Position numbers and translations under genes: made by a program. From NCBI GenBank assembly GCA_040954595.2, contig CM082584.2, positions 12,306,875 through 12,370,874 on the forward strand: DNA of 64,000 bases. Direction: 5' to 3'. The stretch comes from Balanoglossus misakiensis. Lineage: Eukaryota; Animalia; Hemichordata. Positions 22,540-63,863 of the stretch are shown piece by piece (position 1 is the stretch's first letter; each line of letters begins with the position of its first letter). Below the pieces are notes generated by a model. It saw only the letters and a program-made list of their open reading frames with translations, did no database searches and had not been told where the DNA came from.

Positions 22540-22626
22540 AGGCATCGTGTGAACTACGTGTATTCTCAAGCAATAACATCACGTATGTATTATCAACCCG
22601 AGAATACGCGTGGTCAACACGTGCAG
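22540..22626 (-). ncRNA. mir-137: microRNA mir-137 precursor hairpin; mature 3p 22554-22576, star 5p 22589-22611
   Basis: 3p arm UUAUUGCUUGAGAAUACACGUAG matches invertebrate miR-137 as I recall it. 5p arm ACGCGUAUUCUCGGGUUGAUAAU resembles vertebrate miR-137-5p and pairs with the 3p arm, leaving a 2-nt 3' overhang and a 12-nt loop. Extended lower stem, basal UG at -14/-13, CNNC (CAUC) at +16..+19. Confidence 0.97.
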
Positions 22627-53438: not shown

Positions 53439-53565
<127 letters not shown>

Positions 53566-59362: not shown

Positions 59363-59368
59363 TTTATT
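59363..59368 (-). terminator. Candidate polyadenylation signal (AATAAA) for the peptide-precursor gene; alternatives at 58930-58942
   Basis: Minus-strand AATAAA about 530 nt after the stop codon; motif evidence only. Confidence 0.4.
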
Positions 59369-59897: not shown

Positions 59898-60118
59898 TCA
59901 AATTTCCGCGTCAAAATTAGGAAGAATCTTGGCGTCTTCGGACATCAGATGTTGCAGGACGTCTGTGCGCATGCCCATGTCTTCGAGCTGAGCACAGCCA
60001 TCCAGGCATCTATCACTGAGGTTCTTACAGCTGGACAAGCAAACCGATTGGCCACCCTTTTCGTCGCACGAAGCTGCACATTCTTCGACGTCGCCAGTGC
60101 AAAGAAGTGTGTAGCAAT
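59898..60118 (-). CDS. Last coding exon, 73 aa, with 8-Cys domain C-x4-C-x6-C-x3-C-x8-C-x3-C-x6-C-x3-C and an acidic tail
   Basis: tctctctcaatctgtctcttag|ATTGCTAC...; the phase-1 frame gives DCYTLLCTGDVEECAASCDEKGGQSVCLSSCKNLSDRCLDGCAQLEDMGMRTDVLQHLMSEDAKILPNFDAEI-TGA. Confidence 0.87.
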
Positions 60119-63100
60119 CTAAGAGACAGATTGAGAGAGAGAGAGATCAATTTATATGTCATATACACAGGTTTTGTCGAGATGATGAAAACGTGGCTTT
60201 TAATGTCAACTTTAAATGAAACAAACATATGGAAATTATTCATCACCGTTCCACTTTCACTCGGCACAGAGTGACATCATACCACTTACCTAGAATAACC
60301 CCTGACCGTATTAGAGTTGTCCTGATGACTTCATCAGCTATAGGTGCGAAGGAAAAAATAAACGAAAGAATTAACAATTATAAATCCACCGCAATTAAAT
60401 ATTGAGACAGCAAAATAGCACTCTTGATTAACTTGAAAACTCAAACTGACAAAAATGTTGTGCAGTTTGTCCATCATCACTCAACTGAACAGCGCCGCCA
60501 TACATGTATCTTTAAAGGCATCATTACCTACGAGAATCCAGTTAATGTTCACTTGGGTGGCCACGCGGAAAAAAAGTGTGCCACCCTATGGTCATTAGAA
60601 ACATAGACGCATTGCCTATAATTAATGGAGTTTACCACTAGCTAGTGTGTCATAGAATCTAACACTTCACAGAATCACGTGACTGTATCTAACACCACCA
60701 AGACTTGACGCCATATAACACAGAAAGGAAAGAAAAAAGATTGGTCTTACTTAGAGCCCGTACCCTTGTCGGCATCTTTCTTCTCTACCCAGAACACTGC
60801 AATAGAAGACAACACAATGTAAACATCAGAATCCGTGTTTTTATTCAACTGATCAGATTAGTTATATGGGGGCGCCACACTGGCCTATATTGCCGATTAG
60901 GCATGTGTCATTTTATATCTGATCTCAAGTATTTCTTTGTCTCGAAGATGGATTTAAGTGTTTGTTCACTGTCATTCAAAGTAAATGGCACATTCAAAAT
61001 CTCAGTTATGAGGTAGGAGCTGTTCATGATTCCCTGTCCTATTTTTCAACGAATAGCCCTAGTGGTTTGAAATATAGTTGAGATATTACCTCTTTTATCC
61101 TTGTCATCTAGAAAGAAGAAAGAGAATAATGGATGAGTTCGAATTCTATTTCTTTCGTTTCCAGGCAAATCTCATGACATGCTATCAATATTTCCTTTAT
61201 CGGGCAGATGATTAACTGCTCTTTGACAAGTCTTATCCAACCTGTTTGCTTTTTGAATGTACATCATAATGAAGATTTACTGTATTTTTTTTAGATCTTC
61301 CTTTGGTGAAATTCATCAATTGCTTTGGTAAATGTTAGTGTTTCCGATTAACATGCTCTCTACGGGGCTGATACATGACAGCAGCGACAAAGCGTTTTCA
61401 ATAGAGTTCACAGAATGAATACAGTGGGGAGATAAATGATAAAATATGATGTTTGCTTAAACATCGTGGGCATCGTTAAAGACACTCAATATAATTTTTA
61501 TGGGTGCAGTTAAGTTGTAAAGCATAAATGGTGTTGCATAAATGAAATGGAAATTGAGGATTAGAGTAAGTGTTGTCTCACGAGACACCACATTTCATAT
61601 TAATCAGCTTTCTAGGAGAAACAAGATTATTATAATTTAAAGACACCTCCAAGAATGTAACTCAGACAACTTACCATCAGAGGCTTTTTTCTGCACCCAG
61701 AATACTTGAATTGGAAAAGAATTCAAAAATGTAGTTTAATTATGGGCATTATGGAGAAAGTAGGCTCAGTCTGTAATGAGCATTAATTTAAAACATCACC
61801 CATACCCTTGTGATTTCTGTTGTTATTCTAAAAAAAATTAAATTACTTAGTTTCGAGTTGAATCTCACAAAATTGAAGTTCATTATAGAGAATATGGTCA
61901 TTCAAATTCGTGGATTTGCCTGGAAATATTTTCTTTCGATATGATGTAATTAAGCCTAACTCCTAAATCATTGATGTTTGTCGTACCAAACTAGGTCGTC
62001 CAAACCATGCGAACACAGAACTAATTAGAAACTACCTGGGCGTAAACCCCGAACTGAATAACGGTATTAAATTATTAGATATGCAATTACAGAGTAATTA
62101 TTGTTCAATTTTAACATGTAAATTGTCCAACGCGGCCGAATATTATTTTAGCTTTGCAGAAGTGTTGGTCAAGTACATGAATAATGAACTACGTACCCCT
62201 TTTATCTTGGTCGCCTGAAATCAAGAAGAGCATTTAGTTATATTTGTGTAGAGAACGTGAGCGTGAGAGGATAGTTTGTACGGGTTAATGGAAACGAAAA
62301 TTTGATACACTGTAATTTAAATATTAGTAAATGAATGAATACTTTCATATTTTGATGGTAAAATTCTCTTACCTGTCGCGCTGGCATCTTTTTTGTCAAC
62401 CCAGAAAACTGCAATACGAAAGATAGAAAAACATTACTGTGGACTTTCTTTGGACCTACGCCTGTGGGACTTTCGTGTTTACACCCACACATCACTATGA
62501 GACAAATTCTAAACTGGTAATTTCTATCATCAGAAACTATTTAAAACTTACCTCTCTTGTCTTTGTCATCTGAAGATATTGATTATGTGTGGGAGAAAAA
62601 AAGAACAATGAGTGAATTTGGATTGTGAAATTAAATATGTGTAGAATTGATAATACCTTTACGTCTTAGTTTCTAGAATATGTGGACAGCTCATTGGTAT
62701 AAAAGATCATGCATTCATTCATTTATTCATTCATTCATTCATTAATCGGAGGGACTCTGGTATTTAAAATAAAACAACATACCTGCTTTCGCGTCTTTCT
62801 TGTCGACCCAGAAAACTGCCGATGAACAAAAACAAGGGCGATTAATAGTAATGCATCATTAATAGTTAAATATGTCTTCTCTATCACTCGCATAAAATCA
62901 CCCCACATGGCAATTTCTTTAGTTTGTTTTTATGTTTTATTGAATATAAAATAGTCAAATTAATATATAATTAACTAGAATGTCACCCTTACCTCTTTTC
63001 GCCGCATCTGATGCAAAACAAAACAAAGATAAGTAAAAAGATATTTATTAATTCATTCATACAGTTTGATATTCGTAGCATTAAATACATGGGGTTAAGC

Positions 63101-63863
63101 CTTATATGGTAAAATTCCAGGGGGTAACTTCCCTAGAAACACATCGAGATAATAAAACAACTCACCCAAATCCCCGTAGAGACCATTGTCTTTCTTTTCA
63201 ACCCAAAACACTGAAACGATTAACAGAGAGAAATGTGAAAACTTGTTGCCAGTTTACATATCATGAATGAAACAATTATCAAAATGAACATAGAGTAAAT
63301 TCACACAAAGTGTGAAGATTTGAAAAACATTCAACAAAGTTTGTTGTTCTGGTAGTATATGCTGGTAGATAGATTTCAAGTTGGTGGCATTTACAAGTGA
63401 TTTCTATGTAACACATACCTCTTTTGTCTAAATCTTCAGCTGGTGCTATGGACCGAATAAAAGAACAGAGAGACATCATGTAAATACCAATTCAAATAAA
63501 AGCGCATTTTTGATAGGCAAGGCTTGTGAATATATAGGTACGCGGATATGATACATGCATGTAAATACATAAAATATGTAGTTCTAGTAGACGTACCATT
63601 TTTCTTGTCCACCCAAAATACTGGAGAAGAAAATGAAAGGCAAGTTGAGTAAAGTAACAGTCATCGATTCATGGCTTTTTATGTACGGAGAAATACTATG
63701 GGATTTTTTCTGAAAGGGCGCCACCATCAGGCCATGTTGCCACGAAGCTTGCATATATAGATAGATTATCCACTGAAATATTTTACATAGTCTTAAGACG
63801 ACAGCAATCTGTTTTAAAAACTTAGATCCGGACAAGTCTTACCTCTCTTTTCGTCGGCATTTT
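59898..63863 (-). CDS. Partial (5'-truncated) 14-exon gene for a repetitive prohormone/neuropeptide-like precursor: six KR-VFWV[D/E/Q]-KK units plus a C-terminal 8-Cys domain. Exons in transcript order: 63843-63863, 63597-63620, 63419-63445, 63166-63210, 62993-63007, 62783-62815, 62552-62569, 62373-62408, 62197-62214, 61675-61704, 61090-61107, 60764-60796, 60290-60337, 59898-60118
   Basis: Every internal exon is bounded by AG/GT on the minus strand, is a multiple of 3 long and is phase 1-1. Joined, they give an open 587-nt frame ending in TGA (59898-59900). The peptide motif repeats with synonymous codon variation and has dibasic flanks and acidic spacers. The function is inferred. Confidence 0.9.
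60290..60337 (-). CDS. Exon (48 nt), linker ADEVIRTTLIRSGVIL
   Basis: ttttttccttcgcacctatag|CTGATG...ATTCTAG|gtaagt; strong splice sites, phase 1-1, keeps the frame into the Cys exon. Confidence 0.8.
60764..60796 (-). CDS. Microexon (33 nt), peptide VFWVEKKDADK
   Basis: cttctattgcag|TGTTCTGGGTAGAGAAGAAAGATGCCGACAAGG|gtacgg; a competing donor lies 13 nt downstream. Confidence 0.85.
61090..61107 (-). CDS. Microexon (18 nt), spacer DDKDKR
   Basis: ttcttctttctag|ATGACAAGGATAAAAGAG|gtaat; same peptide as 62552-62569 with three synonymous differences. Confidence 0.88.
61675..61704 (-). CDS. Microexon (30 nt), peptide VFWVQKKASD
   Basis: cttttccaattcaag|TATTCTGGGTGCAGAAAAAAGCCTCTGATG|gtaagt; acceptor is AAG rather than YAG. 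Confidence 0.85.
62197..62214 (-). CDS. Microexon (18 nt), spacer GDQDKR
   Basis: ctcttcttgatttcag|GCGACCAAGATAAAAGGG|gtacgt. Confidence 0.85.
62373..62408 (-). CDS. Microexon (36 nt), peptide VFWVDKKDASAT
   Basis: tctttcgtattgcag|TTTTCTGGGTTGACAAAAAAGATGCCAGCGCGACAG|gtaag. Confidence 0.9.
62552..62569 (-). CDS. Microexon (18 nt), spacer DDKDKR
   Basis: atatcttcag|ATGACAAAGACAAGAGAG|gtaagt. Confidence 0.88.
62712..62743. repeat. (CATT)n microsatellite within an intron
   Basis: cattcattcatttattcattcattcattcatt. Confidence 0.85.
62783..62815 (-). CDS. Microexon (33 nt), peptide VFWVDKKDAKA
   Basis: tttttgttcatcggcag|TTTTCTGGGTCGACAAGAAAGACGCGAAAGCAG|gtatgt. Confidence 0.9.
62993..63007 (-). 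CDS. Microexon (15 nt), spacer DAAKR
   Basis: gttttgttttgcatcag|ATGCGGCGAAAAGAG|gtaag. Confidence 0.85.
63166..63210 (-). CDS. Microexon (45 nt), peptide VFWVEKKDNGLYGDL
   Basis: cgtttcag|TGTTTTGGGTTGAAAAGAAAGACAATGGTCTCTACGGGGATTTGG|gtgagt. Confidence 0.9.
63419..63445 (-). CDS. Microexon (27 nt), spacer APAEDLDKR
   Basis: ttttattcggtccatag|CACCAGCTGAAGATTTAGACAAAAGAG|gtatgt; an internal CAG could give a 21-nt in-frame variant. Confidence 0.85.
63597..63620 (-). CDS. Microexon (24 nt), peptide VFWVDKKN
   Basis: ttttcttctccag|TATTTTGGGTGGACAAGAAAAATG|gtacgt. Confidence 0.9.
63843..63863 (-). CDS. Microexon (21 nt), spacer (E)NADEKR
   Basis: tttatttgtag|AAAATGCCGACGAAAAGAGAG|gtaag. Confidence 0.85.

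Follow-up and report, generated by a model that had tools for sequence, protein, structure and literature searches.

The analysed window is a stretch of 64,000 nucleotides (nt) from the acorn worm Balanoglossus misakiensis (assembly GCA_040954595.2, contig CM082584.2, positions 12,306,875 to 12,370,874), and it contains, on the minus strand near its end, the 3' part of a gene that encodes a predicted multi-copy peptide precursor. Twelve exons of 15-45 nt lie between 63863 and 60764, all in phase 1-1 and with lengths that are all multiples of three. Odd-numbered exons are spacers which end with the Lys-Arg (KR) codons plus a G, and even-numbered exons encode the motif VFWV[DEQ]KK, where KK is Lys-Lys, and a short tail. 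An earlier note made on this DNA had proposed a strict alternation of cleavage-site and peptide exons, with the intron falling one base after the KR codons and inside a Val codon, and both features are borne out at the limits given above: the donor is located one base past the KR codons in 6/6 spacer exons, and in the same six the spacer-final G and the first two bases of the next exon form the Val codon. The twelve exons proposed there stand as the array; however, two further 3' exons, which encode a linker and a domain with eight Cys residues, had been overlooked. The last of them contains the stop codon at 59900-59898, and the first AATAAA is found at 59368. The 5' end of the gene, with the presumed signal peptide, is beyond the window edge. 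Exons of 48 nt or less hold 366 of the 587 visible coding nt.

The exon-shaped units and their architecture are real. Introns are GT-AG throughout the array and every one of its twelve exons has G as the last base; in the whole visible gene, 13/13 introns are in phase 1 and 13/13 internal exons end in G. Agreement of the donors with the U1 consensus shows a mean of 6.85 of nine positions (range 5-8), whereas the 3,662 GT sites of the minus strand average 3.71, and the AG-free stretches are of at least 26 nt. An acceptor-plus-peptide pattern showed six matches in the window against 0.02 expected, a number reached in 0/100 shuffles, and when both strands of the window were scanned for phase 1-1 micro-exons ending in KR, the six spacer exons were the only hits; both patterns were designed post hoc, with the exons already seen. 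The long introns were also scanned for hidden exons, which gave five relaxed candidates, none of them module-like. The junctions are predictions from DNA and receive indirect support from the protein isoforms of the orthologues described below. The nine-residue form of exon 3 matches orthologue spacers of equal length.

Table 1. Exons of the predicted peptide precursor gene in the window, in order of transcription.
Feature	Position	Strand	Remarks
Exon 1 seen, spacer	63843..63863	-	21 nt; KR codons and G at the end; gene runs on 5' past the window edge
Exon 2, peptide (Asp variant)	63597..63620	-	24 nt
Exon 3, spacer	63419..63445	-	27 nt; alternative in-frame acceptor 6 nt inside (63439) gives 21 nt
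Exon 4, peptide (Glu variant)	63166..63210	-	45 nt; long tail kept in Ptychodera flava and Glandiceps talaboti
Exon 5, spacer	62993..63007	-	15 nt
Exon 6, peptide (Asp variant)	62783..62815	-	33 nt
Exon 7, spacer	62552..62569	-	18 nt
Exon 8, peptide (Asp variant)	62373..62408	-	36 nt
Exon 9, spacer	62197..62214	-	18 nt
Exon 10, peptide (Gln variant, as in P. flava)	61675..61704	-	30 nt; AAG acceptor
Exon 11, spacer	61090..61107	-	18 nt; one-Ala difference between P. flava isoforms at the matching junction
Exon 12, last peptide	60764..60796	-	33 nt; weakest donor, 5 of 9
Exon 13, linker	60290..60337	-	48 nt, phase 1-1; conserved in all three orthologues
Exon 14, coding part	59898..60118	-	8-Cys domain, then acidic tail and stop

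The Cys-rich exon used as query found a protein of Ptychodera flava with 61% identity, and the P. flava protein in turn found proteins of Glandiceps talaboti and Saccoglossus kowalevskii. The three orthologues, XP_070563220.1 (P. flava), LOC144436064 (G. talaboti) and LOC102807013 (S. kowalevskii), come from three acorn-worm families (Ptychoderidae, Spengelidae and Harrimaniidae) and are all annotated as 'uncharacterized' in RefSeq. Identical over aligned residues are 129/167 for P. flava, the closest, and 103/167 and 94/156 for the others. The motif, the linker and the 8-Cys spacing are the same, whereas the number of copies differs: the comparison among orthologues suggested by the earlier note, carried out at protein level, gave five, seven and nine copies against at least six here. 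A profile search of proteins with 116-455 residues scored 7,995 candidates and retrieved just the three acorn-worm clusters, and phmmer with the Cys exon against 1.84 billion representatives found P. flava alone, a search of limited sensitivity because it missed the two other known orthologues.

The 27 copies of the four species (window included) all have KR, VFWV and a dibasic pair at positions 6-7, and position 5 is E in 16, D in nine and Q in two of them. The sole change in the second dibasic pair is K to R, and conservation falls right after the pair. Acidic spacers together with a dibasic-flanked repeated motif, as expected of a multi-copy neuropeptide precursor, were found in 27/27 copies. 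In 4/4 species the last copy has no dibasic site downstream of its KK, so that it is separable from the Cys domain solely at KK, which argues for cutting at this pair. The likely products would be near-identical five-residue peptides and a separate 8-Cys domain. The Gly-dibasic amidation signal, which is common in neuropeptide precursors and not obligatory, is absent from the eight orthologue records and the window translation. All three orthologues show a hydrophobic stretch within the first 20 residues (KD11 maximum 2.7-3.2), judged from hydropathy. No confident fold was predicted for the repeat region, with a predicted local distance difference test score (pLDDT) below 50 over residues 1-140.

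The tail encoded in exon 4, that of the second module, is conserved across two families, with scores of 63 and 57 against at most 27 and 29 for the other modules. It reads Gly-Leu-aromatic-Gly-Asp-hydrophobic and, in contrast to the records of P. flava and G. talaboti, that of S. kowalevskii does not contain it. This tail may be a second active peptide.

The Cys residues of exon 14 show a spacing of 4-6-3-8-3-6-3, kept in 4/4 species with one single-residue insertion, and the domain is predicted with moderate confidence to be a helical hairpin (pLDDT 75-77). Pfam gave nothing at threshold for the domain (best match big defensin, E 0.57) and only weak unrelated hits for the members of the seven-sequence alignment (best E 0.005, in 1/7). 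Sequence searches of the PDB with the domain reached E values of 0.33 and 1.3 at best, and Foldseek with its model gave nothing at E of 0.001 or lower. Vanabin, a Cys-rich helical protein of ascidians, was found at Foldseek rank 2 (E 5.3, probability 0.15; mean pLDDT of the model only 61), and the best VIA-align Z of 5.7 is in the range expected of common helical arrangements. The Cys domain matched no known family in these searches; novelty of the fold does not follow from them.

Introns 1-11 measure 143-567 nt, in agreement with the introns of about 150-570 nt without mutual similarity described in the earlier note: similarity exceeded a z of 3 in only 1/78 intron pairs (introns 4 and 6, z 5.1), and this pair results from a shared TGAA microsatellite. 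A TCAT/TGAA microsatellite is located in intron 6 (62707-62743) and a related stretch in intron 4 (about 63045-63060); both introns follow peptide exons. Sequence identity is 76% among the peptide exons but only 29% and 34% in the stretches on either side of them. Codon differences among the copies of the window are 42 synonymous and 11 replacement in 105 comparisons, and the fourfold-degenerate Val positions agree in 5/30 copy pairs. Synonymous sites are saturated while the motif is fixed, which indicates old duplications and purifying selection on the motif. The old tandem duplication claimed for the array is therefore supported, and we infer that a two-exon unit was what was duplicated.

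Modules of the window and of P. flava keep their identity by position. Modules 3 and 4 of the window both match best module 3 of P. flava, where the alignment shows a gap of 19 residues; thus the array of B. misakiensis exceeds that of P. flava by one two-exon unit, and such a unit appears to have been gained or lost between the two species. Furthermore, P. flava and G. talaboti each contain one orphan spacer, an internal KR block that is followed by another KR with no peptide in between, while S. kowalevskii shows nine uninterrupted modules. The orphan spacers would fit the loss of a single peptide exon or the gain of a single spacer exon; the inner phase-1 intron makes either change possible. 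Since they are found in 2/3 orthologues, the strict alternation is a trait of the visible array of B. misakiensis and not of the family, and the modularity of single exons has been used, at least in evolution. Peptide copy number has probably changed between species by gain or loss of these exons.

The isoform sample consisted of eight orthologue records, three of P. flava, four of G. talaboti and one of S. kowalevskii, with at least P. flava X3 and S. kowalevskii X1 left out. One Ala distinguishes P. flava X1 from X2 at the junction equivalent to exon 10/11, G. talaboti X1 differs by one Ala from X2 at the equivalent of exon 2/3 and from X3 at another tail/spacer boundary, and P. flava X4 departs from the common sequence, with a Gly, just past the equivalent of exon 12. 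All four internal differences fall on predicted junctions between a tail and the next exon, which supports the architecture. A one-Ala insertion would be expected from a tandem CAG acceptor at a phase-1 intron after G, and the Gly from read-through of a donor. In the window, read-through of the exon 12 donor (60764 and the following intron bases) would add Gly and four residues before a stop, and P. flava X4 has the same end point and shape. A conserved short isoform that keeps all the peptides and drops the Cys domain may exist. In the orthologue records, splicing thus appears as a one-Ala wobble at junctions and a short form without the Cys domain, and skipping of a module was found in 0/8 records.

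With all visible introns in phase 1 and all internal exons ending in G, any skip stays in frame and leaves the first residue of the next exon unchanged. Accordingly, the claim that all exons are symmetric, so that skipping keeps the frame, holds for the 4096 inclusion patterns of the twelve exons, all of them in frame and stop-free. Cutting at both dibasic sites gives three distinct five-residue peptides and 24 distinct mixtures over these patterns, and a skipped spacer would then mask one copy, with 12 possible extended forms; cutting at KR only gives 113 products and 764 mixtures. TGCATG, a Rbfox-type motif, occurs twice where the window rate predicts 1.35, and so shows no enrichment (p 0.12 in the shuffle test).

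We consider, with moderate confidence, that the gene encodes an unnamed multi-copy peptide precursor of acorn worms, probably neural, whose symmetric micro-exons allowed copy number to change in evolution. The exons would encode the repeat region and C-terminus of a family with five to nine copies of KR-VFWV[DEQ]-KK. Judging from the hydrophobic N-terminus of the orthologues, the precursor would be secreted, and convertases would cut it at KR and KK to release near-identical five-residue peptides, presumably for neural use, and the free 8-Cys domain. The array would descend from an old tandem duplication of a unit of peptide exon plus spacer exon between phase-1 introns; as both introns of the unit are in phase 1, gain or loss of one exon or of a pair leaves the reading frame intact. 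The visible outcome is evolutionary change in the peptide dose per precursor, rather than a demonstrated splicing code, and the exons are likely to be included mostly constitutively.

Several points weigh against this interpretation. The neural, processing and receptor claims are made from sequence. The introns of the orthologues were deduced from protein differences and not from DNA, and none of the four isoform differences touches a KR/Val junction. The low pLDDT of the repeat region may stem from a shallow alignment of seven sequences. RefSeq isoform lists under-sample rare skips, and P. flava X3 and S. kowalevskii X1 could be skip pairs. In addition, conservation of the module-2 tail suggests that longer KR-to-KR products may matter, and convertases usually cut KK less readily than KR.

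These last two points favour processing at KR only, which would yield peptides of 14-18 residues in which an N-terminal VFWV-x-KK 'message' is common to all and the acidic 'address' tails vary, the last copy staying on the Cys domain. The full-length precursor would then give six distinct products, and the positional identity of modules between the window and P. flava also agrees with it. However, the second dibasic pair is kept in all copies, its K-to-R change being still dibasic, most tails are low-complexity acidic sequences poorly conserved with S. kowalevskii, and a domain of about 90 residues would remain attached to the last copy. We regard KR-only cutting as possible, though unlikely; if true, swaps of spacer exons would alter peptide identity.

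A second alternative is that regulated skipping of micro-exons produces cell-specific copy numbers or masked copies, a skipped spacer leaving the next peptide N-terminally extended. The uniform phase-1 introns and G-ending exons speak for it, as does the inner phase-1 intron, which is not forced, since duplication of two exons needs just the outer phases to match. The orphan spacers of two orthologues could also be constitutive skips of a peptide exon retained in the DNA, and precedents exist in beetle periviscerokinin genes, backed by RNA-seq (PMC6585902), and in schistosome micro-exon genes (PMC4015677). Nevertheless, the orthologue records contain no skipped module, the splice sites look strong, the TGCATG count is unremarkable, and there are just three peptides to mix if KK is cut. 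The earlier note, which overlooked the second dibasic site, had suggested that splicing could tune the peptide cocktail; this is not supported so far, and we judge it improbable.

It is likewise improbable that the gene produces a non-neural secretion product (epidermal, gland, gamete or defence, as in the multi-copy precursors of frog skin) or an uncut protein with self-assembling aromatic repeats. The family is confined to one class, lacks an amidation signal in all nine sequences and a Pfam match at threshold, and tandem peptide exons are described for frog caerulein and magainin genes (PMC3731216). On the other side, invariance of the motif over three families would be easier to reconcile with a conserved receptor than with a rapidly evolving peptide of defence, the regular dibasic sites and acidic spacers fit convertase processing, and the repeat region has no confident predicted fold. 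More doubtful still is a new neuropeptide system with every convertase site on a micro-exon of its own, where cell-type-specific skipping of the 15-27-nt spacers toggles free and masked copies so that splicing programs processing, and a conserved read-through isoform switches the 8-Cys domain on and off.

The 3' side of the peptide gene looks gene-poor, and in window positions 1-59000 the 16 longer open frames compared with Pfam, of 67 listed, matched no family at E 0.01. At 22549-22618, about 37 kb past the last exon of the peptide gene, the minus strand, which also carries that gene, contains a mir-137 precursor (Rfam RF00694, 77.9 bits). In vertebrates mir-137 is neural; its proximity is no evidence on expression of the peptide gene. 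A (TC)61 tract is found at 53439-53560.

No bilaterally symmetric outgroup is closer to the chordates than the hemichordates, of whose peptides only a part has been described. Strongly conserved and unnamed, with an unusual N-terminal aromatic motif and an unmatched Cys domain, the precursor lends itself readily to peptidomics and receptor matching. Furthermore, with each cut site and each peptide on its own symmetric exon, the gene is a clean natural test of whether this freedom is used by splicing or by evolution only, and the present evidence points to evolution. No description of the family, or of cut sites on their own exons, was found in the open-licence literature, a scope outside which the key neuropeptide catalogues fall. 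The motif is absent from the supplements of PMC6188537 (one file) and PMC10508912 (three files) and from the main text of the latter, and the available parts of PMC4772807 and PMC7294237 contain no matching family.

Among known precursors, somatostatin and urotensin II have a Phe-Trp-Lys core in a disulfide ring at the C-terminus, and membership of this type was rejected for the window gene: none of the 27 copies contains Cys, and the residue after Trp is Val. Neurophysin-associated precursors (vasopressin, NG peptides) were rejected as well; the neurophysin domain is C-terminal with 14 Cys, whereas the domain described here has eight, is predicted to be helical and gives no Pfam hit at threshold. 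Proenkephalin has repeated non-amidated pentapeptides between dibasic sites, an N-terminal six-Cys domain and its copies on one exon. As an analogy only, the pentapeptide repeats and separate Cys-rich domain are alike; however, the motif is unrelated, the Cys domain is C-terminal with eight Cys here, and the acorn-worm sequences gave no hit to the opioid family of Pfam. The PRXamide family is defined by a C-terminal PRXamide motif, and the gene was not assigned to it or to the periviscerokinins, since VFWV is an N-terminal motif and an amidation signal is lacking.

Multiple peptide copies often share one exon (PMC2575521), as in the starfish kisspeptin and SALMFamide genes (PMC9400282), and individual silencing of copies is impossible when they lie on one exon (PMC2575521). 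The earlier statement that repeat copies are commonly encoded on one exon is therefore upheld, except that modular neuropeptide genes with all introns in phase 1 and alternative splicing have already been described (PMC6585902). In Xenopus laevis, the caerulein and magainin genes contain tandem peptide exons whose argued benefit is dose (PMC3731216). Those duplicated exons are nearly identical, in contrast to the saturated synonymous sites and unrelated introns found here, and they encode skin defence peptides of cholecystokinin origin, with no homology to the acorn-worm family. Schistosoma micro-exon genes encode secreted proteins largely from symmetric micro-exons, with skipping demonstrated and serving variation (PMC4015677). 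Symmetric micro-exons form most of the coding sequence in both cases; the acorn-worm gene differs in the strong purifying selection on its motif and in the orthologue records without a skip. Beetle periviscerokinin (Capa) genes have phase-1 introns only and four to seven coding exons, one to four of them variable peptide exons, with exon number varying and alternative splicing in some species (PMC6585902). The uniform phase 1 of coding introns (13/13 here) and the number of modules varying between species (five, at least six, seven and nine) are shared; however, the acorn-worm gene has at least 14 exons, its N-terminal cut site lies on a separate exon of 15-27 nt, the sequences are unrelated, and alternative inclusion of peptide exons is seen in the beetles and in 0/8 orthologue records here. 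Phase-1 modular neuropeptide genes were thus already known, and what is new here is the intron between the cut site and the peptide, and the family itself.

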